Virus record (IMG/VR): IMGVR_UViG_3300045988_054859
Source of the DNA: a virus
Direction: 5' to 3' (one strand)
DNA length: 61,533 nt
Below the pieces are notes generated by a model, which did not search any database, was not told the origin of the DNA, and saw only the letters and a list, made by a program, of their open reading frames with translations. The position numbers and the translations under genes were made by a program. Below, piece after piece: positions 7,807-61,533 of this stretch. The number at the start of each line of letters is the position of its first letter. Positions within the stretch are counted from its first letter, which is position 1.

Positions 7807-8805
7807 TCATTTCACGATTTCCGCCAGCCTCTCGACGGTAACATCTGTCTCGATGTACGGGCTGCTGCCGGTGTCGTCTGTGTAGGTTCCGGTTACACCA
7901 TCTGCGCTTTTCCAAAGTATCATGTTTTCCACCTTGCTGCTGTTGCCCTCGCTGAACTCCTCGACCTTGTACTCCGAAAGCGTGATACCAAGCTCTGCCG
8001 CTTTGTCGAACACTGCCTGCGCCGTTTGCTCCGCCACTATCGGGAGATACAGGCCGCCAGAGGAAACGGTTCGAACGGTGAGCGTGTACTTGCCGCTGTA
8101 ATAGAATGCATCAATCGACGATATGTAGGCTGCGCTTTCTTTGTCCAGCGCGTTCAGTGCGGTTTCTTCGAGGACGCTCCGGTTCGTCTCCGGCGTCGAT
8201 ACTCTGGTTGTGCTGGTTGTTCTCTTTCGAGGTGCTATAAGGTCGAATCCGCCAAAAAGCATGAACGCAAAGAACACAGCAACAGCGATGGCTATGATGT
8301 TCGCCTTTTTGTTCTGCTTTTTGCTCGGCTCCGCTGCCGGGTTTTCTTTTTTGGGCTGCTCCGGTTTCTGCTCCGGCGACGGCTCCTCTTTCACGCGGTC
8401 CGCAAAGCTCACTTTTTCTTTGTCATCGCCAAAGTATGCCCAAAAGCACTTTTCCCGTTCGTCCACATACAGGTGTGTCATGTACTTCCAGCCATGCTCT
8501 GTGTGGTATTTTCCTAGTACCTTTTTGTGCAGAACATCTATCACAGCGAATGTTCCGCTGTCCTCGTCGTTCCGGGCGTTGTGCGCTGTCTGGCACACGG
8601 CGTATCTTGAGCCGTCTGAAATGGAGGCCGCGTTTACAAAAGATTCTGTTTCGTACACCAGCTCCGGGGTGAATGAATCGTCCGTGATGTAGAATTGCTT
8701 TCCCCAAAAGCAAGCAATCTTGGAATCCCTGCTCATTACGAAGTTGATTTCGAGCGATGGCTTGTACGCGCACTGCTGTTTCAGCCTCTCCCGTACCTCG
8801 TCCAT
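7807..8805 (-). CDS. Single-pass membrane protein (332 aa as drawn). It is probably the out-of-frame body of a longer gene that starts at 8902.
   Basis: A central TM segment IIAIAVAVFFAFMLFGGF follows a Lys/Pro/Glu-rich linker. There is no SD in front of the ATG at 8805. A strong RBS plus ATG at 8902 is separated from this frame by a G11 tract (see findings). Confidence 0.6.
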   Translation of the reverse strand: MDEVRERLKQQCAYKPSLEINFVMSRDSKIACFWGKQFYITDDSFTPELVYETESFVNAASISDGSRYAVCQTAHNARNDEDSGTFAVIDVLHKKVLGKYHTEHGWKYMTHLYVDEREKCFWAYFGDDKEKVSFADRVKEEPSPEQKPEQPKKENPAAEPSKKQNKKANIIAIAVAVFFAFMLFGGFDLIAPRKRTTSTTRVSTPETNRSVLEETALNALDKESAAYISSIDAFYYSGKYTLTVRTVSSGGLYLPIVAEQTAQAVFDKAAELGITLSEYKVEEFSEGNSSKVENMILWKSADGVTGTYTDDTGSSPYIETDVTVERLAEIVK

Positions 8806-8839: not shown

Positions 8840-8902
8840 CTACTTGTTACCCCCCCCCCCGAACAGTTGTTCGTGGGTGAGGGACGCAGTTGTGTTGCCC
8901 AT
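8840..8902 (-). CDS. 20-codon leader ORF ending just after the poly-G tract (MGNTTASLTHEQLFGGGGNK)
   Basis: AGGAGG (8912..8917) lies 9 nt upstream of the ATG at 8902. With G11 the frame stops at TAG 8840..8842. With G10 it reads into the 332-aa ORF. Confidence 0.5.
   Translation of the reverse strand: MGNTTASLTHEQLFGGGGNK
8850..8860. repeat. Homopolymer C11 (G11 on the coding strand)
   Basis: Counted by eye as 'a' then 11 c then 'gaacag'. Confidence 0.9.
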
Positions 8903-11908: not shown

Positions 11909-13168
11909 TTACTGGAATGCACCGCTGACGGCTTCGATGTAGCCGCCCTCGCCGGATTCGCCGCGCTCCACGCTGACGCGGAAGTTAAACGCCGCGCCGT
12001 TGGTGGCGGTCTTATTCTCAAAGACGATGTTCACGCCTTTTTTTACCTCGGTCGTGGCATCCTGCCAGACCGGGGAGCTGTCGAGTGCGTTGTTGGTCAC
12101 TTCGGCTTTGAACTTCGCATCATCGGGGATGGAGCCGGTCACCTGAAGCACGGCAACGGTAATGTCGCCCTCAACGGCCAACGGTTCAGCCAGCGTCACG
12201 CTTGCGGCGTGGACGGCCTTGGTAAAGGTCGCGGACGTGCTGACGGTTTCCTTGCCGTCGCTCACCTCAACGGTGATGGTGTGGTTGCCGTTCAGGATTT
12301 TCTGGAATCCGGCAGCGCTGGCCGTCTGCTCAAAGGTCAGGGCCGTGCCGCTGGCAACGCCGGTGCGGGTCTTGGCGGTCTTTCCGTCCAGCTTTTCGGT
12401 GACGGTCAAGGTGTCGCCGTCGGCATCCCTGACGGTGTACTTCCACGCAAAGGCCGCGTTCTTCCGCCCCAGAGCTGCGCCGTCCGTGCTGACGGTAGGT
12501 GCAGTGTTGACACTGACCGTGCCGTCGTCAGAGACCACGAGTGTAGAGGGAAGAATGAAAGCGGGGCGAACACCATAGGAGAAGTAGCACCAGTGGCCGT
12601 CGTCGGAGCCATCGGTGCTGACGTACCAGACGCCGCTGCCATCGCTGGTGTACGGAGAGCGCAGCCACCAAATGGCAGCGGAGCTGCCATTGTATGCAAT
12701 ACGCTTGCTGTTACCGCTGGAGCTGTTGCCAAAGTATGCCAGCCTCACACCGTCCTTCGGGAAATAGCCGTTGTCGCTGGTCGTCCAACCAACCTCATAA
12801 CCAGACAGCAGGAACACTTTGGTGCTCAGGCCGTTGGAGCCGGTGGCAAGGCTGCCGCCGGAACCAGTGCCGTTCTGGTACGGGATTTTCACCTGCTTAA
12901 TAGCCGCCCGGATGTTGCTGTCGATGAGGTTGTAGAACGTTCCGTTCAGGTATGTGTGGATGCTGGAATCCTTGTAGGAGTTATTGTTGCCGAACGTGGA
13001 CGTGGTGTAGATGTCCTTCATCAGCAGCCACGTTCCATTGCAACTCGAATCATAGGTGCTGGTATTCGGGTTGCCCTGCTGCACAACAATAAAATCTTTG
13101 GACGCGCCGTTGACTTTGATTTTGACAATGCTGCCAACGGCTTTCGTGCCCAGTTTTACGTTTGCCAT
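11909..13168 (-). CDS. DGR target protein (receptor-binding/tail-fibre-like, 419 aa) with an internal variable region
   Basis: AAGGAGG lies 6 nt before the ATG at 13168. VR encodes AAIWWLRSPYTSDGSGVWYVSTDGSDDGHWCYFSYGVRPAF (C-type-lectin-like DGR VR pattern WLRS...GVRP). About 216 aa of beta-rich sequence follow. Confidence 0.8.
   Translation of the reverse strand: MANVKLGTKAVGSIVKIKVNGASKDFIVVQQGNPNTSTYDSSCNGTWLLMKDIYTTSTFGNNNSYKDSSIHTYLNGTFYNLIDSNIRAAIKQVKIPYQNGTGSGGSLATGSNGLSTKVFLLSGYEVGWTTSDNGYFPKDGVRLAYFGNSSSGNSKRIAYNGSSAAIWWLRSPYTSDGSGVWYVSTDGSDDGHWCYFSYGVRPAFILPSTLVVSDDGTVSVNTAPTVSTDGAALGRKNAAFAWKYTVRDADGDTLTVTEKLDGKTAKTRTGVASGTALTFEQTASAAGFQKILNGNHTITVEVSDGKETVSTSATFTKAVHAASVTLAEPLAVEGDITVAVLQVTGSIPDDAKFKAEVTNNALDSSPVWQDATTEVKKGVNIVFENKTATNGAAFNFRVSVERGESGEGGYIEAVSGAFQ
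12561..12680 (-). repeat. DGR variable region (VR)
   Basis: Gapless 120-bp alignment to 14590..14709. All 19 mismatches fall where TR has A on the coding strand. Confidence 0.9.
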
Positions 13169-13188
13169 TGTTACCTCCTTGTTTTCGT

Positions 13189-14418
13189 TCAGGCCCACGG
13201 CATGATCTCCGCGGGCCGCGTGTTCTGCGATACAGAGAGGGACAGGGCTTTGTGCTGCTTCTTGTAGATGCAGCGGCATTGCCTCGCCCGCCGTCTGTCA
13301 CGCGCGAGTTTGTTCGAGTTGATTTTTCGATGGATAGGGATTTTACAGTCAAGCAATTTTTCGAGCCGGTCAGCGTACTTGCGGCGTAAAGAGTAAGTAT
13401 CACCATGGGCGGCATGGGCATCCCACGCATCAAAGCTCCGCAGGATTTCCTGCTTGGTCACTTCGCCTGCGGGGTATGCCGTCTCCCAATATCTGATCTT
13501 GTTCTTCATCCGCTTGGAGCTATCCCGGCGCAGCTTTTGGATGACCGCGCCGGTGTCGGTCAGGTAGCTATGGAATCCCAGAAAATCAATACCGTTCCGC
13601 AGCGGGAAAATGGCGGTTTTCTGGTTCAGCTCAAGGCCGTAACTGTCCATGAGCGCCCGAACATCCCGGAGAATGCACTGCAATTTCTTCTTGTCCGAAC
13701 AGATGATGTAGAAATCATCCATGTATCGGCCATAGTATTTGATGCGGTACTTTTCTTTGATGATGTGGTCGAACTCGTCCAAAAACATGAGGGCGAAAAG
13801 CTGGCTCGTCTGGTAGCCCAGCGGCAAGCCGTCCTCCATCACGTCGATGTAGATGCAAAGCAGCTCATAGACACGCGGGTCAACGCCGCGCTTGTCCAGC
13901 ACGGCTTTGAGCTTGCGTTTTAGCTTCCGGTGGTCGATGCTGGCGAAGAAATGCCGCACGTCGCCTTTCAGCACCCAGCCGTCCGCGCCGTGGCCCTCAC
14001 GGCGGTAATAGTCCACCATGTGGGTTTTCAGGCGCATCAGGCCGTCGTCTGTGCCTTTTCCGGTCTGGCTGGCGTGGCTGTCCCGGATAAAGCTCTTTGT
14101 CAGGGCATCATACAGGATGTTATCGACCAGAGCGTGCAGCACCACCTTGTCCACAAATGCGGGGGCGTGTACCATGCGGCGCTTCGGCTCGTAGACGGAA
14201 AAGACCTCAAACTTACTTGGCACATAGCGTATCTGCTGCCGAATGCTCCCGTCTGGCTGCCGCACATTGCAGACAGCCAGCTTACGGGAGAGCTTTTCCG
14301 TGCAGGCCAGCGCCTGCGCCTCGTACTCGATTGTTTTGCTTTTACTGCGCTTTCCCTTCCGGGCTTCAAGGTAGGCTTTGTAAAGTACCTCAAAGCTGCA
14401 CAGTTCTTCGTATGCCAA
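13189..14418 (-). CDS. DGR-type reverse transcriptase (409 aa)
   Basis: Contains the RT motifs PKRRMVHAPAFVDKVVLHAL, IRDSHASQTGKGT, VLKGDVRHFFASIDH, GLPLGYQTSQLFALMFL and YGRYMDDFYII. Adjacent to the TR. Confidence 0.9.
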   Translation of the reverse strand: MAYEELCSFEVLYKAYLEARKGKRSKSKTIEYEAQALACTEKLSRKLAVCNVRQPDGSIRQQIRYVPSKFEVFSVYEPKRRMVHAPAFVDKVVLHALVDNILYDALTKSFIRDSHASQTGKGTDDGLMRLKTHMVDYYRREGHGADGWVLKGDVRHFFASIDHRKLKRKLKAVLDKRGVDPRVYELLCIYIDVMEDGLPLGYQTSQLFALMFLDEFDHIIKEKYRIKYYGRYMDDFYIICSDKKKLQCILRDVRALMDSYGLELNQKTAIFPLRNGIDFLGFHSYLTDTGAVIQKLRRDSSKRMKNKIRYWETAYPAGEVTKQEILRSFDAWDAHAAHGDTYSLRRKYADRLEKLLDCKIPIHRKINSNKLARDRRRARQCRCIYKKQHKALSLSVSQNTRPAEIMPWA

Positions 14419-37258: not shown

Positions 37259-38652
37259 TTCTTAACGTCTCCTCTCCTCTTGGGTTTGACCGGCAGGCAC
37301 AACAGGAGGATGCAGTCGGCCTCGTCGGGCGAGTGCATCCCGCGCTTTTTCATGGCGTCCTTGCTCTCCACGCGGATTTTGGCGTCGTCGGTCATGGAAT
37401 ACTTTCGTGTGGAAAGCTGGCCGACGAGGTCGTTATCGTTCGGGAGAATGAGCTGGACGGGCTTCTGTGCGCCCTCCGGCGTCTGCGGTGCAAGTAGATT
37501 CTTTACGACGCTCATCATGTAGGTGGTGCTATCGTAGTAAAAGTCATGGTGTATGCGCTGGCCGAAGTAAACGGGGATAATATCCATCCACCAGAACCGC
37601 TCCGGCTGCTCGCGCTTTACGCGCCGCAGACGGTCCGTGACGCCGCCGCCGAGGCCGCTGTCGTCTATCTTGATGGGGATAGCCTTGTCGAACCGGTACT
37701 TTTCCATGAGCTTTAGGCCGAGCTCCATGATGTCGTCGGCCGTCTGCATAAGGTCCTGCCCACTCTTTCGCTTGTAGAACATGGCCTTTTCGTCCACCTT
37801 GTAACCGATTACGGTGCGGTCGTCACCATAGCGGGCAACGTCGCAGCCGATGTCGATGCGGGCGGGCTTTGTCGGTTCCGTCCACTCGGTCATAATGGAT
37901 TTTTCGACTAGCGGCAGAGGGATGAAAACATCGTTCTCCTGCCGGGGGAACTCTCCGGCGACACGAACACGGAAAACGTCCGAATCCTCGCCGTACATCT
38001 GGATGATGGTTTTGACGAAGTCGTCCGAGACGCGGCTGCTGTTCCGGCCATCAACATGGAATGTGGTGTAGCTGCCTCTGTTCTTATGGTGGCTGTCATA
38101 AAAAAAGCCCGACAACTGTGTCGGGTTTCCGCACATGAGCAGCCGCGCTCCGGGCGTCGAAAGTGCGCCCAGCACCGGCTCGAACACCTTGTCGTCCACG
38201 CCGCTGGCCTCGTCGATGATGTAGAGGATGTCGTCAGCGTGGAATCCCTGCAGGGCGTCCGGCTTGCTGGCCGTTCGGGCCACAGCGAACCACTCCTCGG
38301 GGTACTGCTTCATGTAGACCTTTTCCTTTGTCCACATCAGCTCCCGCTCGAGGGCTTTATTGTTGCGCAGCCACTTGCTTATTTCCGCCCACAGAATATC
38401 GAATAGCTGATGCTGCGTCGGGGCCGTGCAAGGGATTTTGGGAAATGGCCGGGTTGACATAAACCAGATAACGGTCCACGCCTCGACCGCGCTCTTGCCG
38501 ATGCCGTGGCCGCTGCGGACGCTCGTCATCTGATTCTTTGCCACAGAATCCAATATGGCGCGCTGGTTCTTGTCCGGCGTAACGTGGAGCAGGTCCTCGA
38601 CAAAATCAGCCGGGTTGTCTGCGTAGTACAGGATAGCCTCTTGGGTCATCAC
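37255..38652 (-). CDS. terL: Terminase large subunit (465 aa)
   Basis: Walker A-like RSGHGIGKS, a downstream acidic Walker B (LYIIDEASGV), and a C-terminal nuclease-like region. Confidence 0.85.
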   Translation of the reverse strand: MMTQEAILYYADNPADFVEDLLHVTPDKNQRAILDSVAKNQMTSVRSGHGIGKSAVEAWTVIWFMSTRPFPKIPCTAPTQHQLFDILWAEISKWLRNNKALERELMWTKEKVYMKQYPEEWFAVARTASKPDALQGFHADDILYIIDEASGVDDKVFEPVLGALSTPGARLLMCGNPTQLSGFFYDSHHKNRGSYTTFHVDGRNSSRVSDDFVKTIIQMYGEDSDVFRVRVAGEFPRQENDVFIPLPLVEKSIMTEWTEPTKPARIDIGCDVARYGDDRTVIGYKVDEKAMFYKRKSGQDLMQTADDIMELGLKLMEKYRFDKAIPIKIDDSGLGGGVTDRLRRVKREQPERFWWMDIIPVYFGQRIHHDFYYDSTTYMMSVVKNLLAPQTPEGAQKPVQLILPNDNDLVGQLSTRKYSMTDDAKIRVESKDAMKKRGMHSPDEADCILLLCLPVKPKRRGDVKK

Positions 38653-39167
38653 GTCTGTTCTCCTCGTTTCCGGTTCTCGTATGCGGCCGCGATTTCATCG
38701 GCGAGGGAGAGCGTTGTTTCCTCCTGCTCCTCCGCCGTCTTGCCTCCGGCCGTGACGCCTGCCTCCTCCATCCGGTTATCCCGCTCAAGCTCTGTGGCCT
38801 TGTCGAGGAACTGGATAATGTCCTTTGGCGTCATCGACCCGTCCGGCAGATTCTTGAGCTCCGCGAGGGCTTTCTCTTGGAGCTGCAAGGCGATGCCGAT
38901 GTGGCGGGTCCTCATTTTTTTGTACTTTCGGAGTGCCTCTTGTCGGGCTACGTCATCCAAATGGTTGTCATACGCTCGGCAGCGTTCTCCCCACTTTTTC
39001 TCGCGGCTCCAACGCTTGATAAGCGTGTCACTCTTGGATAACTGTTCGGCAACGACCCGTAGGCTCCTGTTTGAGCCCATGTCTCGGTAGATGGCAAATG
39101 CCTCGTAGGCCTGCGCGCTTTCGCCCGGTTGACGCTCCCAAAGGTCGTCTTTGGTCCTATTCGGCAT
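38649..39167 (-). CDS. terS: Terminase small subunit (172 aa)
   Basis: Contains ESAQAYEAFAIYRDMGSNRSLRVVAEQL (HTH typical of Firmicute-phage terS). GGAGAGGAGG RBS. Overlaps the terL start. Confidence 0.7.
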   Translation of the reverse strand: MPNRTKDDLWERQPGESAQAYEAFAIYRDMGSNRSLRVVAEQLSKSDTLIKRWSREKKWGERCRAYDNHLDDVARQEALRKYKKMRTRHIGIALQLQEKALAELKNLPDGSMTPKDIIQFLDKATELERDNRMEEAGVTAGGKTAEEQEETTLSLADEIAAAYENRKRGEQT

Positions 39168-39186
39168 TGTCCTCCTCTCCTCACTT

Positions 39187-40032
39187 TCAGCTCTGTCCCG
39201 GGCTGCGAGGCTCCGCGCCCGTAATCCAGAATAGGGTGCTTTCCGGTGCGATGCCGGAGCTTCTAAACCACTGCATCGTCTTTGCCTCGTAATGAGGATG
39301 CAGGCGAATGCCCCCCCATGTAGCCGCTGCGGACTTCTCATAGACGAATCCGGGGCTGTGGAAAAGGTCGTGGTACTCAAACTCTCGGTCTGCGCCGTAC
39401 TTTTTGAGGGTCTCATGGATGAATCCGCGCCGGTCCGGGGCCGTGGCTACGAGGTGCATCCTCTTGACCCGTTTCCCGTACCTGTGCAGTCCTATCATCA
39501 CGCCGGTGGCGGTGATGCCGCTGCCGCAGGTCATCACGAGGTTTTCTATATCGTCCGGGAGGTTCTCTGTCTGCGCCGCAACTGCGGTTAGCAGCGTGTC
39601 GCCGTACCCGATGATATTGATGCCGTACTGGACAATAAAGCTGTTTTCCTGCGCCGCCAGCTCTTTTGCGCGGGCGTGTAAAATGCTGTGGCGGCCGGAA
39701 CGTGCTGCGAGCACTATGGACGCCCCATATTTCATCGCCAGCCGGGGCATAGGCAGAGCCGCAACGCTCTCCCGGGTGGTTCCGCCGTACACGATTCTGC
39801 ACGGCATCCCGTTTGCCCGGGCAACCGCTGCGGTGATGGGTGCTTGCGGGGAGTGGATGCTGCAATACGTCAGCAGGCTCTTGTAGTCCTTCTTGACGCT
39901 GTTCACCAGCATCACGCATTGCCGGAGCTTTCCTCCGTTCACCTCTCCGGGGCCAAACGGGGCATAAAGGTCGTCCCGCTTGATGTGCAGCCCGTCCACC
40001 TCCTGAACCGGCGTCAGGCTGTACTCATTCAT
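39187..40032 (-). CDS. Fold-type-II PLP-dependent enzyme, ACC-deaminase/D-cysteine-desulfhydrase-like (281 aa; an alternative TTG start lies at 40074)
   Basis: Contains LHIKRDDLYAPFG...NGGKLRQ (the family signature is KRDDL...GNKxRKL). A glycine-rich TCGSGITATG loop is also present. The ATG at 40032 overlaps the upstream stop codon. Confidence 0.65.
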   Translation of the reverse strand: MNEYSLTPVQEVDGLHIKRDDLYAPFGPGEVNGGKLRQCVMLVNSVKKDYKSLLTYCSIHSPQAPITAAVARANGMPCRIVYGGTTRESVAALPMPRLAMKYGASIVLAARSGRHSILHARAKELAAQENSFIVQYGINIIGYGDTLLTAVAAQTENLPDDIENLVMTCGSGITATGVMIGLHRYGKRVKRMHLVATAPDRRGFIHETLKKYGADREFEYHDLFHSPGFVYEKSAAATWGGIRLHPHYEAKTMQWFRSSGIAPESTLFWITGAEPRSPGQS

Positions 40033-41044
40033 CCAGTCCAAACACCTTTCTGTGGTAGTCGGTCTTTTTGGCAAGCTCCTCCTGCATCAGGCCGTAAAAG
40101 CTCTGCTTTGCAATTTTGCGCCCGCTGCCCGCGCTCTGGTTCAGCGTCTTGAACGGTCCGCCCGTCCCGACTTCTTTCATCTTTTCCGTCGGCTCCGGGT
40201 TCTTGCCGTTCATCAGCATACAGAGGTTATACTCGTTCGGCCGGAATCCGGGCAGGCCGTCGATGCCGCAGCAAGTCATGCTGTCGCCCATTGCGCGGAG
40301 CCTGTTCTCGCCGCTGTAGAATTTCAGGCCGTACCGATGGCACTCCGCCTTGATGGCTTCAAAATCGTGCCGGAGGCGGGGCAGCGGATAGCAGAAGTCA
40401 CCGCCGATTTTCGTCATGCCGGGTTTGGCCTTAAAGAACTTCATGCCCTCCACGATGACGCCGTAGGCTCCTGCCTCCGCGATGCGAGGGATGTTCTTCA
40501 TAACGTCATGGAACACCTCGGGCATATACGGCTGGATGCGGACGATGGTGCGCTGCACTCTGGCCGATACCGTCTTGAGGATGGCGAGCCGCTCCTCGTA
40601 GCTGGGCGTCCCGCGTTCGAGGCGGTCGTACTTGCTGCACACCATGCTGATTTGCAGCACACAGTTGCACTGTGCCAGCAGGTCGAGGTACTCCGGGTCC
40701 GCAATGAGGCGGCCCTTTGTGCTCACCACAAACGGATATTTCGTCTCCGCCAGCAGCTTGAGGCATTCGTAGCTGGCGCGAATCTGCTTTTCGACCGGCT
40801 GGAACGGGTCACTCATGCCTCCCCAGTGGATAGGGATGTTCCAGTCGCACCACTCCGTTTCGTTGCCGCGCTTGCCCTCGATAAAGGAGCGCAGGCCGTC
40901 TACGCTTTCGTCGCGCTCGATGTGGCTAATGTCGTTCTTCTTCTGTGCGAAGCAGTACCGGCAGCCGTGTGAGCAGCCGCGATAGGTGTCGAAACGCACA
41001 GGAAGGTTACAGAGAATAATCTGGCTCCCGCATTTGCAGCCCAT
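40025..41044 (-). CDS. Radical SAM enzyme, spore-photoproduct-lyase/'DNA repair photolyase' (COG1533)-like (339 aa)
   Basis: CxxxCxxC cluster in the context YRGCSHGCRYCFA near the N-terminus, followed by a TIM-barrel-length body. TAATG coupling to the upstream gene. Confidence 0.7.
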   Translation of the reverse strand: MGCKCGSQIILCNLPVRFDTYRGCSHGCRYCFAQKKNDISHIERDESVDGLRSFIEGKRGNETEWCDWNIPIHWGGMSDPFQPVEKQIRASYECLKLLAETKYPFVVSTKGRLIADPEYLDLLAQCNCVLQISMVCSKYDRLERGTPSYEERLAILKTVSARVQRTIVRIQPYMPEVFHDVMKNIPRIAEAGAYGVIVEGMKFFKAKPGMTKIGGDFCYPLPRLRHDFEAIKAECHRYGLKFYSGENRLRAMGDSMTCCGIDGLPGFRPNEYNLCMLMNGKNPEPTEKMKEVGTGGPFKTLNQSAGSGRKIAKQSFYGLMQEELAKKTDYHRKVFGLDE

Positions 41045-41613
41045 TAAATCTCACCTCTAATCTTCTGGACGATGACGGCAACAAGGTCCTCTTTGCCGTT
41101 GTCCTTTATGTACTCTTTCAGGACGTCGCGGTCCTCCGCGCTAAACTTGAGCGAGATGTTGAACGTCTCCTCAATGCTCTTGAGCTCGCTGTCGAGGAAG
41201 TCGCCGTCCACGAGGGCGTCCACGTTGTTCTCAAGGGCCTCGATTTCGTACAGGTCGAATCCCGTCTCCGGGGCTGCGTCTCCAAGGCCGTCCAGCAGCT
41301 CCTTGAGCTTTACCTCGTCCCATTCGCCGGTCACTTTGTTCATAGCGATGTTGAGCTGCTTTTCTGCGGTCTCGTCGAGGTCCACCACGGACACGTCCAC
41401 CTCGGTTACGCCCTCGTTCATAAGGACGGTGAGCCTCTGGTGGCCGGACACGACGCGGTTGGTGCGCCTGTTCCAAATGACAGGGACGACCATGCCGAAC
41501 CGCTCAATGTTCCGCTTGAGCTTCTCGTACTCGTCATCACCGGGCATCAGCTCCACGCGAGGGTTGTACTCCGCGCGCTCCATGTCGGTGATTCTTTTTT
41601 TGATAATTTCCAT
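41044..41613 (-). CDS. ParB/Srx-fold N-domain protein, paralog 2 (189 aa)
   Basis: Contains YNPRVE...RNIERFGMVVPVIWNRRTNRVVSGHQRL...NIAMNKVTGEWD...TGFDLYEIE. This is the ParB module usually fused to phage DNA methyltransferases, but no MTase domain is present. Confidence 0.7.
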   Translation of the reverse strand: MEIIKKRITDMERAEYNPRVELMPGDDEYEKLKRNIERFGMVVPVIWNRRTNRVVSGHQRLTVLMNEGVTEVDVSVVDLDETAEKQLNIAMNKVTGEWDEVKLKELLDGLGDAAPETGFDLYEIEALENNVDALVDGDFLDSELKSIEETFNISLKFSAEDRDVLKEYIKDNGKEDLVAVIVQKIRGEI

Positions 41614-42200
41614 CAGATAAGCCCCTTCGCCTTGTTCACGAGCAACTGCGCCAGTTCGACCTTGCCTGCGGGGTTCTCGTCAATGTACTTATCCATTGCC
41701 TCATGCACCTCCTCGGGCAGGGTGAACGTCATGGTGTAGCTTGTCGGCTCGCTCTTGCCGGTGTCGGAAAAGTCCTCGTTCAGCAGGTCCTCGATATGGT
41801 CGTATGTCACCTTGAGGGCGTCGAGTTCCCAGTCCTCGAAACCAGTGAGGGCCATTTCGTCCTGCTCTTTCAGCTCGTCCAGAATCGCGGTGAGCTTTTC
41901 GTTGTCCCACCGGCCGGAGATTTTGTTGAGCGAGACGTTAAGGATGCGCTCCTCCTGTTCGTTGAGCTCGACCTCGACGACTTCGACCGTCTTGTAGCCC
42001 TGCTCCACCAGCACCTTGAGCCGCTGATGGCCGCCTACGATGTTGCCGGTGGTCCGGTTCCATACGATGGGCTCAACATAGCCGAAAGTCTCGATGCTCC
42101 GGGCCAACTTGTCGTACTGCTTGTCGCCCGGTGCGAGGTCTTTCCTCGGGTTGTAGTCCGCCGGATGGAGGTCGCTCACCGGCAGGGTGATAATTTTCAT
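41613..42200 (-). CDS. ParB/Srx-fold N-domain protein, paralog 1 (195 aa)
   Basis: Contains YNPRKD...RSIETFGYVEPIVWNRTTGNIVGGHQRL...NVSLNKISGRWD...TGFEDWELD. GGAGGA lies 7 nt before the ATG at 42200. Confidence 0.7.
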   Translation of the reverse strand: MKIITLPVSDLHPADYNPRKDLAPGDKQYDKLARSIETFGYVEPIVWNRTTGNIVGGHQRLKVLVEQGYKTVEVVEVELNEQEERILNVSLNKISGRWDNEKLTAILDELKEQDEMALTGFEDWELDALKVTYDHIEDLLNEDFSDTGKSEPTSYTMTFTLPEEVHEAMDKYIDENPAGKVELAQLLVNKAKGLI

Positions 42201-42215
42201 CTGCCGTTCCTCCAC

Positions 42216-45694: not shown

Positions 45695-45909
45695 GTTTCA
45701 TCCTCCTTTTTTGTTTTCTTCAACTGGCGGCCGCACTCCGGGCAGAAGTTCAGCGGCCGTCTTTTGTGAGTGTAGGTTGAGGCAAGTCCGCAGCCCTTTC
45801 TGAGGGTTCTCTCATAAAGGCAGACGTAATACTTTGTGTATAACTCTCTGCCGGTCTTTGGCCTGTGCTTCTTGCTCCACTCGTAATCTTCGCAAAATTG
45901 GCAGTTCAT
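45691..45909 (-). CDS. Zinc-ribbon protein (72 aa)
   Basis: Contains CQFC...CPECG. Confidence 0.5.
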   Translation of the reverse strand: MNCQFCEDYEWSKKHRPKTGRELYTKYYVCLYERTLRKGCGLASTYTHKRRPLNFCPECGRQLKKTKKEDET

Positions 45910-46436
45910 GCGCTTTCCTCGATTACTTTGAGGTCATACCCGCTCTTGACAAACTTCATACACAGTTCGTGTTTGATGCCGTTGCCGAGGTAGGTGTAGA
46001 TGTACTCCATGTCCTCCTGCGTGAAATTGGTGTCAAGCAGCTTGTTGACGCCATCAAGATGCTCCTTGCGCAAAGGTTTCGTGTAGCCCTTGCTTGCCAA
46101 ACGGGAGCAATTCTCGATGATTTTGGCTTTGAACTCGTCCGGGGTGCTGCAGTGGTTGAGGTTGATGTATGTGTTCGTCCTCGGGACGAGAATCAGCTCG
46201 AAGTTCATGGTGACGTAGGCTTTCGGGAAAGCGCGCTGAATCTTCCCGCACCACGGAGCCGCGAACGGGCTGAACCACGGCAGCATATAGCTGCGGAGCT
46301 CCTGCTGACTGACTGCTGGGGCGTCCTGAATGTGGTCGATGCAGCGCTCGATGGCCTCCCGCTCTGCGAGGCTGTCCGCCTCCTCGAGCCATCCGTTGAA
46401 TACACGGACGGTTTCCTCTGCGTTAATCGGTTTCAT
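45906..46436 (-). CDS. Hypothetical protein (176 aa)
   Basis: Overlapping stop/start codons on both sides. Confidence 0.55.
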   Translation of the reverse strand: MKPINAEETVRVFNGWLEEADSLAEREAIERCIDHIQDAPAVSQQELRSYMLPWFSPFAAPWCGKIQRAFPKAYVTMNFELILVPRTNTYINLNHCSTPDEFKAKIIENCSRLASKGYTKPLRKEHLDGVNKLLDTNFTQEDMEYIYTYLGNGIKHELCMKFVKSGYDLKVIEESA

Positions 46437-47095
46437 AACTGTCCTCCAAATTGCTCTGCAAATGCTCGAGCGACTCCCGGGAATGTCTTTGCGCGATTTC
46501 GCGCTCTGTCTCTCGTAAACATTCCCTTGTTTTTTTCATCATGTTTGTGGGAATAAGAGCCAGATGGGCACCACGTTGCAATCGGCTCAACAATGTTCGT
46601 CGGCGCGACCGGGTCAAGATTTTTCAACCATAGACAGGTTTTCTTGCTGTATGGGTGTCCAAACTGGTACGGCTGAATAATCTGCGTGTACTCTGGGAGA
46701 CAAAATACCCTGCTCGGCACCGGATTCTCAACGCATATTCTCGGGATGTCCGCCCACCAGAATCTCATAAACAGGTCGCGTCCTAAAATTCCTTTCATTA
46801 CGCGGTCCTCTTGTAGCTGGTGGCCTTTCCACAGATGTCGTGCTCCGGCGTTTGAAAGATATGTGCATGGCGGGTGCGCAATGAGCAAGTCCCACGCATC
46901 AATGTAATGCGCTTTGTCGTCCATTGTGACGATTTGCCCCCCCCCCCGCAGAGCCGGTACGGCGTCTCCGAGGATATGCCATTCCGGGTGGCCTCCGGAC
47001 GGTTCCTGCACATCGCAGGAGTAAGCCTCATGCCCTAAAGACCGAAATGCCTTACAAACTTCCTGCGATTCCTCGCAGGCAATTAAAACTTTCAC
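46433..47095 (-). CDS. Short C5-cytosine DNA methyltransferase-like protein (220 aa) containing a G11 tract
   Basis: Contains VLIACEESQEV (motif I-like), AHPPCTYLS (PC motif IV), CVENPV (ENV motif VI) and a C-terminal RNRAKTFPGVARAFAEQF. The frame is intact with 11 G. Confidence 0.6.
   Translation of the reverse strand: MKVLIACEESQEVCKAFRSLGHEAYSCDVQEPSGGHPEWHILGDAVPALRGGGQIVTMDDKAHYIDAWDLLIAHPPCTYLSNAGARHLWKGHQLQEDRVMKGILGRDLFMRFWWADIPRICVENPVPSRVFCLPEYTQIIQPYQFGHPYSKKTCLWLKNLDPVAPTNIVEPIATWCPSGSYSHKHDEKNKGMFTRDRARNRAKTFPGVARAFAEQFGGQL
46937..46947. repeat. Homopolymer C11 (G11 on the coding strand, encoding RGGGQ) inside the methyltransferase gene
   Basis: Counted by eye as 'gatttg' then 11 c then 'gcagag'. 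Confidence 0.9.
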
Positions 47096-47403
47096 GTTTC
47101 TTCCTCCGTTCCGTCCTCAAGTCTGTCCCCGCAATAGGGGCAATACTTGAAATGCCCGATAACGTGAGCACCGTACTCCCAGCCAAGGCAATGATTGCAG
47201 CCATCGCAGAACACACCGTCTTTGGTTTCTGGTACATATCCACGGATGATGTGCGCCGTTGGTCGCAGCGTTTCCGGGTCGATGGTCGGGGCTGCCTGAA
47301 TCAGCCCGAGTGGAACCGCGTGACACGCAGAGCCCTTCGGCCCGGTGATGTAGATGGCCTTTTCTTCCAGTTCGTTGGCGTCAATGAGCCTTTTTTCTGC
47401 CAT
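47092..47403 (-). CDS. Cys/His-rich hypothetical protein (103 aa)
   Basis: Contains CDGCNHC...CPYCG. Confidence 0.5.
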   Translation of the reverse strand: MAEKRLIDANELEEKAIYITGPKGSACHAVPLGLIQAAPTIDPETLRPTAHIIRGYVPETKDGVFCDGCNHCLGWEYGAHVIGHFKYCPYCGDRLEDGTEEET

Positions 47404-49097: not shown

Positions 49098-49659
49098 TTA
49101 CGTCGTATAGCAACGCTTGGCCGGGTTCCACGTGAGCTTCGGGATGCTCCGGCCGCAAACGCAGGAGAACTTCTCGTTTACGATTTCGGCGTCCTCGACG
49201 TTCGTCCGACCGTAGCTCTCCTTCTTGCAGACCGGGCAGGTGAACTCGAACCGTGCCAGCGCGTCCAGCGGGATTTTCGCGCCGCACTTCCGGCACTCGT
49301 TGGTCGTTTGCGGTTCGCGCAAGAACTGTACAAACTCGCTCTTGCATTTCGGGCAGCGCAGGAGCATGAGCCCCTTTGCGCCGACGGGCGTAAGCCAGCT
49401 TACCGGCTTCTTGGGGGGGGGCTTTCTTGTCCGCCGTGGAAACTACCGAGGCGGCCTGCTTCGGCTCGCTGGTGACGCTCTTTTCCGCCTCCGGCGCGCT
49501 GTCGCCGTTGTACAGCGTCGTGGTCTTGGCGATGGTCTCGAGTGTTTTGAGCGCGGTGTCGAGCTCTGCGGGGCTCTTGCCGGTCAGCGTGACGCTCACA
49601 TCCGGTTCTCCCTGAAACTTGAAAATTTCCATCGAGACTTCAAACTTCGTACTTGCCAT
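49098..49659 (-). pseudogene. Gene split by a C9 coding-strand homopolymer: N-terminal part (from ATG 49659) and zinc-ribbon C-terminal part (ORF 49098..49367) in different frames
   Basis: GGAGG RBS precedes the ATG at 49659 (MASTKFEVSMEIF...ADKKAPPQ). After the tract the zero frame becomes Arg-rich nonsense. The -1 frame is open and runs into LLRCPKCKSEF...CPVCKKE... Confidence 0.5.
49413..49421. repeat. Homopolymer G9 (C9 on the coding strand)
   Basis: Counted by eye as 'cttctt' then 9 g then 'ctttc'. Confidence 0.9.
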
Positions 49660-60925: not shown

Positions 60926-61417
60926 TTACACCTCCTGTTTTCCGAATTGCTTTCTATAAATGAGCTTCAAGGTCTGAGCCTTGTTCGTTATCTCGTCGAG
61001 TACCTCGAGGTACTGCTCCATGCGCGGCTTTTCGCTCGCGTCGATGACGCCGTCGGCCGCGATGTCGATGATTCCGTCCTTGACCTCCGGCAACGACTTC
61101 ATTGCCGAAATGAGCTGTAATGTGACCCGCTCGAGCTCTTCCAGCTCAATCGGTGAAATTGTCCCGATGCCGAGCGGGCAGAGGTGCGAGCAGAAATGGT
61201 TTTGCAGCTCCGGCGCGTTGTAGGTGTCCGACAGCATCAGGACCTCCTCCGGGTGCGGGTTGATGGTTCCGAGCTCGATGTTGGCGAGCCGCGTCCGGTC
61301 GATGCCGGTCACCTCTGACGCACCCTCTCTGCTGCCTAACCGGTCGTTCCACGATGCCGCCGCGATTCGTGCCTTGTAAAACACGTTGTCAGCGGCTTTC
61401 GTCGCCATTTTGGGCAT
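60926..61417 (-). CDS. XRE-like HTH regulator, second gene of the early leftward operon (163 aa)
   Basis: Contains SEVTGIDRTRLANIELGTINPHPEEVLMLSDTY (HTH). The AAAGGAGG RBS lies inside the terminal repeat, confirming continuity across the junction. Confidence 0.6.
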   Translation of the reverse strand: MPKMATKAADNVFYKARIAAASWNDRLGSREGASEVTGIDRTRLANIELGTINPHPEEVLMLSDTYNAPELQNHFCSHLCPLGIGTISPIELEELERVTLQLISAMKSLPEVKDGIIDIAADGVIDASEKPRMEQYLEVLDEITNKAQTLKLIYRKQFGKQEV

Positions 61418-61533
61418 TTATCCTGCGCCTCCTTTCGATTAAAATATTTACAGGGGAAACGCTAAATGTTCGTTTTTGGCGTCACGATTTTGCATCAATG
61501 ACGCGAAACGGGTCGCTTCGGGTTAAAAAAAAG
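61415..61533. repeat. Terminal direct repeat, copy 2 (identical to 1..119)
   Basis: See copy 1. Confidence 0.95.

Follow-up and report, generated by a model that had tools for sequence, protein, structure and literature searches.

The 61,533 bp window analysed here is the whole of IMG/VR virus record IMGVR_UViG_3300045988_054859, and on its minus strand it carries an open reading frame (ORF) with the predicted fold of a C5 DNA methyltransferase (46433..47095), in the coding sequence of which there is a run of 11 G's (46937..46947). The length of this tract determines whether the protein is completed, and in closely related gut phages it ranges from G7 to G12, with both ON and OFF alleles common. 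The ORF is probably under the control of a simple-sequence contingency locus, in which frameshifts at the tract toggle an orphan phage enzyme of predicted C5-methyltransferase fold ON and OFF, with bet-hedging the most likely benefit. An initial annotation, made from the letters alone, had proposed a possible phase-variable phage methylase at this position. The phase variation that it proposed is well supported by the comparative evidence assembled here.

The G11 tract and the reading frame

The ORF encodes 220 amino acids from a GTG start, and its frame is ON in this window. The tract stands, on the minus strand, in the context ccg gct ctg cGG GGG GGG GGG caa atc, which is translated as P-A-L-R-G-G-G-Q-I, the G's being the last two bases of Arg50 and the whole of Gly51 to Gly53. 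The sequence ctg-c-G11-caa, encoding L-R-G-G-G-Q inside an intact ORF, is therefore a matter of direct reading, as had been annotated. Also present are the two motifs that had been named: a motif IV-like PC with the presumed catalytic nucleophile (Pro75-Pro76-Cys77, 46865..46873, within L-I-A-H-P-P-C-T-Y-L-S; the HPPC is residues 74-77, codons 46865-46876) and a motif VI-like ENV (Glu123-Asn124-Pro125, 46721..46729, within I-C-V-E-N-P-V), which has Pro in place of Val.

Slippage was simulated by setting the tract to between 6 and 14 G's and translating the product. Tracts of G8, G11, and G14 give the full protein of 219, 220, and 221 amino acids, while G7, G10, and G13 lead to a stop at 97–99 amino acids and G6, G9, and G12 to a stop at 63–65. 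In every out-of-frame product the frame is lost at about residue 51, an out-of-frame tail follows, and Cys77 is absent. The earlier expectation that slippage would truncate the protein after about 50 residues, ahead of the catalytic cysteine, was thus right in substance, with the stops at 63–99 amino acids, and the frame logic of the tract can be regarded as established.

Long runs of this kind are over-represented in the window. Against an analytic first-order Markov expectation, there are two G/C runs of at least 11 where 0.024 would be expected (Poisson P about 3e-4) and three of at least 9 where 0.39 would be expected. In the predicted structure, the tract encodes a loop between a helix (residues 45-49) and a strand (53-57). 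With this loop begins a hairpin insertion, which about 40% of family representatives do not have, and the gain or loss of one glycine in frame should be tolerated here.

The ORF overlaps its neighbours at both ends. Its start, preceded by the ribosome-binding site ggagga, overlaps the TGA stop of an upstream gene of 103 amino acids as GTGA (47092..47110, minus strand, by direct reading), and its own TGA stop (46433-46435) overlaps the ATG of a downstream gene of 176 amino acids (45906..46436) as ATGA (46433-46436). These overlaps imply translational coupling, and a frameshift to OFF may also reduce expression of the coupled downstream gene.

Tract length in natural populations

Alleles were sought without bias as to frame, using as query the 19 bases upstream of the tract followed by six G's, in two sequence collections. 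This identified 24 flank-matched public gut contigs with tracts of G7 (6 contigs), G8 (6), G9 (8), G10 (2), G11 (1), and G12 (1), such that 7 are in frame and 17 are out of frame. In most of these the flanks are 100% identical to the window. The set includes long contigs of 31, 80, and 172 kb, and OFF alleles are found on long contigs. Runs of 6-7 A's or T's in the same genomes are invariant.

The exact 220 amino acid product of the G11 allele is recorded in 341 index blocks and is present on contigs of 50–88 kb from different human-gut samples, in MEGAHIT, SPAdes, and Logan assemblies. Among protein clusters, the ON form is represented by P0001 (268 members) and P0002 (431 members). Cluster P0026, with 627 member sequences, holds a protein of 192 amino acids that is 99% identical, begins at a start in another frame, and enters the methyltransferase frame at the tract; its contigs read G9 on DNA, making this an OFF cluster. 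The third frame is represented by cluster P0074 (255 amino acids), in which a tract of G7 can be deduced from the protein sequence. Polymorphism of the tract in nature is, on these data, firmly established.

Maintenance of the tract across the family

Homologous loci were compared in 80 IMG/VR and 80 genome loci with protein identities of 48–99%. Down to an identity of about 55%, the same two glycine codons form a run of G's in the majority of members. In tblastn alignments the frame breaks in 9 of the 160 loci, each time within residues 48-55 and at no other place, and by direct reading loci L064 and L067 are likewise off-frame at the tract. There are 8 OFF and 12 ON alleles in the clade that includes the window, which has a G8 baseline ((a/c)GG GGG GGG), whereas a clade of about 40 with a G7 baseline (gaG GGG GGG) has 1 OFF allele, a G6, and a single G10 that is in frame. 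Between these two clades polymorphism rises with tract length.

The tract is also conserved at the level of codons. In the 64 sequences that possess the Gly-Gly site, GGG makes up 110 of the 131 glycine codons there (84%), as against 20% at other glycine codons of the same genes, and the codon before the site ends in G in 51 of the 64. Of the 23 representatives with less than 80% nucleotide identity, 15 use GGG throughout the site where 4% would be expected, with a binomial probability of about 5e-16 in which kinship between the sequences is ignored.

Downstream of the tract, the ratio of nonsynonymous to synonymous substitution rates (dN/dS) against the window is 0.02–0.07 in OFF and ON alleles alike, and the OFF alleles have no secondary lesions. 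Purifying selection on the gene is evident from these ratios, and the low values in OFF alleles indicate that the OFF states are recent relative to the sequence divergence, as expected under repeated reversal or purging.

Repeats of other kinds occupy the same loop elsewhere in the family. A homologue that is 65–75% identical, L116 (3001-3662, in the Eubacteriales metagenome-assembled genome (MAG) contig JAZQWM010000034.1), has an (AG)9 repeat at this position and is out of frame; 8 or 11 AG units would restore a protein of 222 or 224 amino acids. There is a G9 (N-G-G-G-Y) at the loop in the distant homologue L108 and a G7 in the distant homologues L130 and L131. These distant homologues, which do not have the ancestral tract, have gained other repeats at the same loop independently.

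The locus therefore has four of the features by which contingency loci are recognised: a repeat of hypermutable length within an ORF, for G/C runs about 7-8 or more; ON and OFF alleles in near-identical genomes; inactivation confined to the repeat with purifying selection elsewhere; and a tract that is kept against synonymous interruption. An invariant tract, or a glycine run written in mixed codons among relatives, had been named in the initial annotation as findings that would speak against switching, and the relatives clearly show otherwise. Lengths of G7 to G12, common ON and OFF alleles, frameshifts confined to the tract, over-use of GGG, and purifying selection are together the behaviour of a phase-variable locus, as had been suggested.

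The protein and its family

The 220 amino acid protein matches PHROG 757, 'DNA methyltransferase', with E=7e-54, and GenBank phage records call its homologues DNA methyltransferase or S-adenosylmethionine (SAM)-dependent methyltransferase, these names being given by homology only. An AlphaFold2 (AF2) model has a predicted local distance difference test score (pLDDT) of 73 and a predicted template modelling score (pTM) of 0.77. The top Foldseek matches of this model in the PDB are all C5 DNA methyltransferases, with M.HaeIII (1dct) at E=5e-5 followed by DNMT1, DNMT3A, DIM-2, MET1, and M.HhaI. These matches have E values of 5e-5 to 1e-3 and a probability of 1.0, but template modelling (TM) scores of only 0.35–0.46. 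In a viral structure library the model also matches cytosine methyltransferases. Evidence from the fold is thus positive but moderate, and the protein probably has the fold and the chemistry of a C5 methyltransferase.

Residue conservation was determined in a deep alignment (A3) of 80 representatives that are 37–55% identical to the window protein. Seven residues are invariant (C7, E8, S26, D28, H40, P75, and K151), and near-invariant positions include P76 (74/80), C77 (79/80), E123 (79/80), N124 (79/80), P125 (78/80), and S10 (79/80). Thus Cys7 and the presumed nucleophile Cys77 are two cysteines that are invariant or nearly so. Strands 2 and 3 end in acidic residues, of which D28 is invariant and D44 is found in 75 of 80, and these would map onto motifs II and III, the usual SAM-contacting positions. 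A putative target-recognition region of about 40 residues (160-200) has a conserved W-C-P-x-G-x-Y, and residues 173-201 are modelled with pLDDT below 50.

Like the canonical C5 methyltransferases M.HaeIII, M.HhaI, and DNMT3A, the protein has a Pro-Cys following strand 4, a Glu-Asn-x, and a G-x-A in a helix at the C terminus, and by Foldseek its fold is probably Rossmann-like as theirs is. Unlike them, it has Cys-Glu where FxGxG would be, has no recognisable QxRxR or target-recognition domain, is 220 rather than 320 or more amino acids in length, and scores below the Pfam threshold.

The family is large, with 5,060 clusters at 50% identity (E<=1e-3). Several of its best-scoring representatives align to the profile only beyond about position 50, as frameshifted alleles would be expected to do. 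Homologues with 46–49% identity are present on contigs of 5–6 kb labelled as single-stranded DNA phages, MT135284.1 (Inovirus sp.) and MG945386.1 (Microviridae sp.), where the features bear the names 'plasmid replication protein' or 'hypothetical protein'. These could be misannotations or could represent genuine carriage by small phages.

Other variable tracts of the same phage

Every G/C run of at least 7 in the window varies among close relatives. In the window itself the methyltransferase-like gene is ON, and the two other long tracts, in a leader ORF (8850-8860) and in a zinc-ribbon gene (49413-49421), are OFF.

The first of these companion tracts is within a short leader ORF on the minus strand (8840..8902) that has its own ribosome-binding site and encodes MGNTTASLTHEQLFGGGGNK, with G11 at 8850-8860 and a stop at 8840. 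A tract of G10, G13, or G16 would fuse this leader to an ORF for a 332 amino acid membrane protein (7807..8805). The same promoter, ribosome-binding site, and 20-codon leader carry from G7 to G16 in 27 IMG/VR contigs (loci L197-L225), where there are at least three different cargo proteins behind the leader: a 364 amino acid membrane protein, a 318 amino acid lipoprotein-like protein, and proteins of 279 or 342 amino acids. Judged from these arrangements, the unit of promoter, leader, and poly-G has the look of a cassette, situated at a moron locus, that confers phase variation and is portable.

The second companion tract is a C9 (49413-49421) in a minus-strand gene that starts from an ATG at 49659 (49098..49659) and belongs to the same early block as the methyltransferase-like gene. 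Here C5 or C8 joins the N-terminal domain to a double zinc-ribbon C-terminal part, giving a protein of 185-186 amino acids, and with other lengths the product is split or altered. Ten loci with an identical methyltransferase-like protein (L161-L170) have C5 (2 loci), C8 (3), C9 (3), and C10 (2) at this tract. The third is a G7 (39311..39317, minus strand) near the 3' end of a gene for a pyridoxal phosphate (PLP)-dependent enzyme (39187..40032). Two of 10 near-identical loci have a G8 instead, with a product of 256 rather than 281 amino acids in which the last 40 or so residues are altered.

Alternative explanations

The main rival to a selected switch is that the tract is a non-adaptive mutational hotspot, a glycine loop that happens to be encoded by G's, slips, and inactivates a dispensable gene, with no benefit from switching. 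Several observations lean this way or weigh against the explanation favoured here. The ON share of 7 in 24 matches the one third or so that would result if tract length drifted at random; selection for ON is thus not apparent in these samples, and the share does not by itself show selection for either state. The human-gut contig NODE-3124 (2783 bp; L178) has a G12 and, 11 bases past the tract, jumps into the middle of the downstream 176 amino acid gene, so that the body of the methyltransferase-like gene is missing and the gene is evidently dispensable. Some clades keep the gene with an interrupted or absent tract, the binomial value for codon use takes no account of kinship, and the variation in length is seen between samples, at the level of contigs, rather than within one clonal population. 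Against a hotspot, a stabilising synonymous interruption (GGA, GGC, or GGT) is rare at the site, where GGG is so strongly preferred; the low dN/dS and intact remainder of the OFF alleles mean that they are repeatedly restored or very young; repeats, one of them a dinucleotide, have arisen independently at the same loop; and the phage has three other tracts with similar behaviour. The hotspot is on balance unlikely. Far less credit can be given to programmed recoding, in which the G run would be a site of transcriptional or ribosomal slippage such that some complete protein would still come from OFF genomes, or a short N-terminal product would come from ON genomes as well. The strong conservation of the tract at the codon level and the defined short products of both downstream frames would fit such a mechanism, but it neither needs nor predicts genomic lengths from G7 to G12, the alternative-frame tails are not conserved as proteins and are simply frameshifted methyltransferase sequence, the (AG)9 at the same site fits DNA slippage and not ribosomal frameshifting, and bacterial transcriptional slippage is known on runs of A or T. 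The least credible of the alternatives is a sequencing or assembly artefact. Homopolymers are error-prone, several of the flank-matched contigs have a coverage of 1–5x, and L195 has other single-nucleotide deletions, so some individual length calls may be errors. However, the 119 bp overlap between the ends of the window marks it as a circular short-read assembly (of the k=119 type) and not one from long reads prone to homopolymer error; together with the recurrence of the G11 protein across assemblers, this led to a long-read artefact being rejected. The six values of tract length, and lengths up to G16 at the companion tract, go beyond errors of plus or minus one, and the range of lengths, the OFF alleles on long contigs, and the invariant A/T runs in the same contigs exclude artefact as a general explanation.

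A different alternative accepts that the switch is real and holds that its product is not a SAM-dependent DNA C5 methyltransferase: it may use another cofactor or substrate, make another C5 modification, act on RNA or nucleotides, or bind DNA without catalysis. This is doubtful, though somewhat more likely than the hotspot. The protein misses the PF00145 threshold, with 11 bits against a cut-off of 22 (E=0.29), and the match covers only residues 59-87 around the PC motif. Pfam, NCBIfam, and PADLOC gave no family assignment for the 220 amino acid protein. Searches of the PDB with HMM profiles, built from a shallow alignment (A1) or the deep one (A3) of 23 or 80 sequences, reached no solved methyltransferase and gave chance matches only (KmHsv2 and topoisomerase III), as a result of which the motif correspondences rest on the order of secondary structure and on Foldseek, the latter with the low TM scores given above. 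No FxGxG motif I or glycine-rich loop was found in the 80 representatives, which instead have the invariant Cys7-Glu8 within A6-C-E-E-S-Q11 (47063..47080, minus strand) after strand beta-1, and in only 220 amino acids there is no clear target-recognition domain, the candidate region being short and modelled with low confidence. Because of these four findings, in Pfam, the profiles, motif I, and the target-recognition domain, DNA methylation is putative only. On the other side, all of the significant fold matches are C5 DNA methyltransferases, D28 and D44 would lie where SAM is usually contacted, and GenBank homologues are named, by homology, as DNA or SAM-dependent methyltransferases. Of the original assignment as a C5 methyltransferase, then, the PC and ENV-type motifs stand and the fold is probable, while the sequence profiles and the FxGxG motif do not bear it out; methyltransferase activity, like the selective benefit of switching, is plausible.

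The preferred explanation, of a contingency locus that toggles this enzyme, would work as follows. Slipped-strand mispairing during replication of the phage or prophage would alter the length of the tract at a high rate and reversibly, with 8, 11, or 14 G's giving the full protein and other lengths ending translation before Cys77. ON genomes would make the enzyme in lytic growth and modify the DNA of the progeny, OFF genomes would not, and the early stop in OFF genomes may also lower translation of the coupled downstream gene. Modified ON DNA would escape those restriction enzymes that the modification blocks, and OFF DNA would escape modification-dependent (Type IV) restriction, or the OFF state might spare the lysogen the cost of the enzyme. 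A mixture of ON and OFF progeny would then be a bet-hedge, for which agt of phage T2 provides a precedent.

The phage and the surroundings of the gene

The first and last 119 bases of the window are identical (1-119 and 61415-61533), which puts the true genome size at about 61,414 bp and means that the window covers the entire phage. It encodes a large serine recombinase (serine integrase, 1078-2682) and a helix-turn-helix (HTH) repressor-like gene (479-1042). Homologues of the methyltransferase-like ORF are found in MAGs named as Oscillospiraceae, Gemmiger, Faecalibacterium, Oscillibacter, and Dysosmobacter, and among the MAGs of Oscillospiraceae, Faecalibacterium, and Gemmiger there are relatives in the prophage state. 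The integrase, repressor, and prophage relatives indicate that the phage is temperate, in agreement with the initial annotation. In a megablast search of the window from 44 to 50 kb against GenBank phages there was no match, and the phage therefore has no close cultured relative there.

On the minus strand there is a reverse transcriptase (RVT_1; 13189-14418) of a diversity-generating retroelement (DGR), which is adjoined by the gene for the DGR target protein, with DUF6273 and immunoglobulin (Ig)-like domains (11909-13279). The phage is thus a circular, temperate, DGR-bearing phage of gut Oscillospiraceae, of the Faecalibacterium/Gemmiger group, and it combines the DGR (11909-14418) with several simple sequence repeat (SSR) tracts.

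In near-identical contigs the genes around the ORF are SbcC-like, DnaC-like, RecU, ParB-N, radical-SAM, PLP-enzyme, and portal genes. The ORF lies in the replication and recombination block, co-directional with its neighbours and outside the lysogeny and moron region, and this position, with the coupling to its neighbours, would point to expression in the lytic cycle. The same considerations go against the earlier suggestion of a phasevarion-like effect on the methylome of the lysogen, which is not favoured. No nuclease, res, or hsd domain was found in the neighbouring genes with Pfam and PHROGs, and there was no PADLOC match; the gene is an orphan, as had been stated, in that no restriction partner was found nearby. 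A reading as a restriction-modification or Type III mod gene was rejected, there being no partner gene adjacent.

Just upstream of the terminase and portal genes, genes for ParB-N, an uncharacterised protein, a radical-SAM protein (a weak match), and the PLP enzyme lie in a row on the minus strand (38649-42215). This row may be a pathway for nucleotide or DNA modification.

Comparison with known systems

Phase-variable methyltransferases are well known from bacterial pathogens. They include the Type III mod genes and their phasevarions, for instance ModM in Moraxella catarrhalis (PMC6902483), and, in Campylobacter jejuni, the Type IIG gene cj0031 with its poly-G tract (cited in PMC13076061). 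The locus described here is like these in having a repeat within the ORF, heritable ON/OFF switching by frameshift, and both states in natural populations. It differs in being carried by a temperate phage whose hosts are Gram-positive anaerobes of the gut, in being an orphan with no res or endonuclease partner, and in encoding a divergent C5-like protein and not an N6-adenine Mod. The gene is also in a phage replication block, where an effect on a host regulon is not indicated.

There is also a likeness to agt of coliphage T2, where slippage in a run of A's switches DNA glucosylation and trades restriction by TgvAB against that by McrA/BC (Gomez, Barrick & Waters; bioRxiv 10.1101/2025.10.21.683753). 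In both, slippage by one base in a homopolymer inactivates a phage gene of the DNA-modification type, reversibly in T2 and presumably also here. The T2 case is an experimental one, with a run of 9 A's in a glucosyltransferase gene of a virulent phage, and conservation of codon choice was not reported (bioRxiv 10.1101/2025.10.21.683753). Here, by contrast, there is a run of 7–12 G's, conserved across a large family in temperate gut phages, and the support is comparative.

Among phage orphan methyltransferases, which serve in anti-restriction or in reprogramming of the host, PamA of a Staphylococcus aureus prophage is Dam-like (N6-adenine) and acts on the lysogen (cited in PMC13076061). The gene described here resembles PamA and others of this kind in being a solitary methyltransferase-type gene on a phage or prophage. 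Phage orphan methyltransferases are not listed as phase-variable in a 2026 review of prokaryotic methyltransferases, and no phase-variable phage-encoded methyltransferase was found there or in the literature searched, coverage of which was incomplete. Within the same incomplete coverage, nothing was found on poly-G tracts in Oscillospiraceae phages or on this gene family, including any experimental report on the family. Neither a preprint on 'epigenetic phase variation' in the gut (PMC11741434) nor a paper on DGR prophages of Faecalibacterium (PMC11792537) mentions homopolymers, SSRs, or this methyltransferase, and a paper on prophage CJIE1 concerns host tracts and not a phage methyltransferase tract.

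Hypermutable poly-G tracts within ORFs are also known from Campylobacter phages, where they reportedly give rise to ON and OFF phage subpopulations (Sorensen et al. 2021, Cell Rep 35:109214; cited in PMC12823448). The target described here differs in being a modification-type enzyme, and the host group of the present phage is not known for poly-G phase variation. In Campylobacter the phages concerned are virulent, with a host that is itself rich in poly-G, and their tracts are said to control receptor-binding and other structural genes.

Implications

That a homopolymer should switch a gene in this way is in principle unsurprising, and what is presented here is a clean and widespread case in gut phages. 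The unusual points are its carriage by a phage, the non-canonical family to which the enzyme belongs, the conservation of the tract over a wide family, and the convergent repeats. Contingency loci in phages, those of Campylobacter phages and T-even phages, have been described only recently. This locus adds to them a phage gene of the DNA-modification type and a new setting, temperate phages whose hosts are dominant gut commensals that are difficult to culture. Taken at the level of sequence comparison, the conservation of codons, the convergent repeats, and the presence of several tracts per genome suggest selection for mutability itself.

A broader reading can be offered tentatively, being rather less probable than not. 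It is that a widespread lineage of temperate gut Oscillospiraceae phages might have, together with a DGR, a 'phage phasome' in which the hypermutable G/C tracts number at least four, and that the Cys-Glu C5-fold enzyme would serve as a bet-hedge against restriction and the leader and poly-G would form a portable cassette with swappable cargo.

There are consequences for the annotation of metagenomes, since gene calling routinely splits these genes or cuts them short at the tract, with clusters such as P0026 and P0074 being OFF alleles. Attention is also drawn to the family itself, whose 5,060 clusters are uncharacterised enzymes in which the active site is unusually made up. Should the enzyme modify phage DNA, the progeny of one prophage would be a mixture of modified and unmodified phages, and the host range of gut phages, as well as the linking of such phages to their hosts on the basis of methylation, would be affected.

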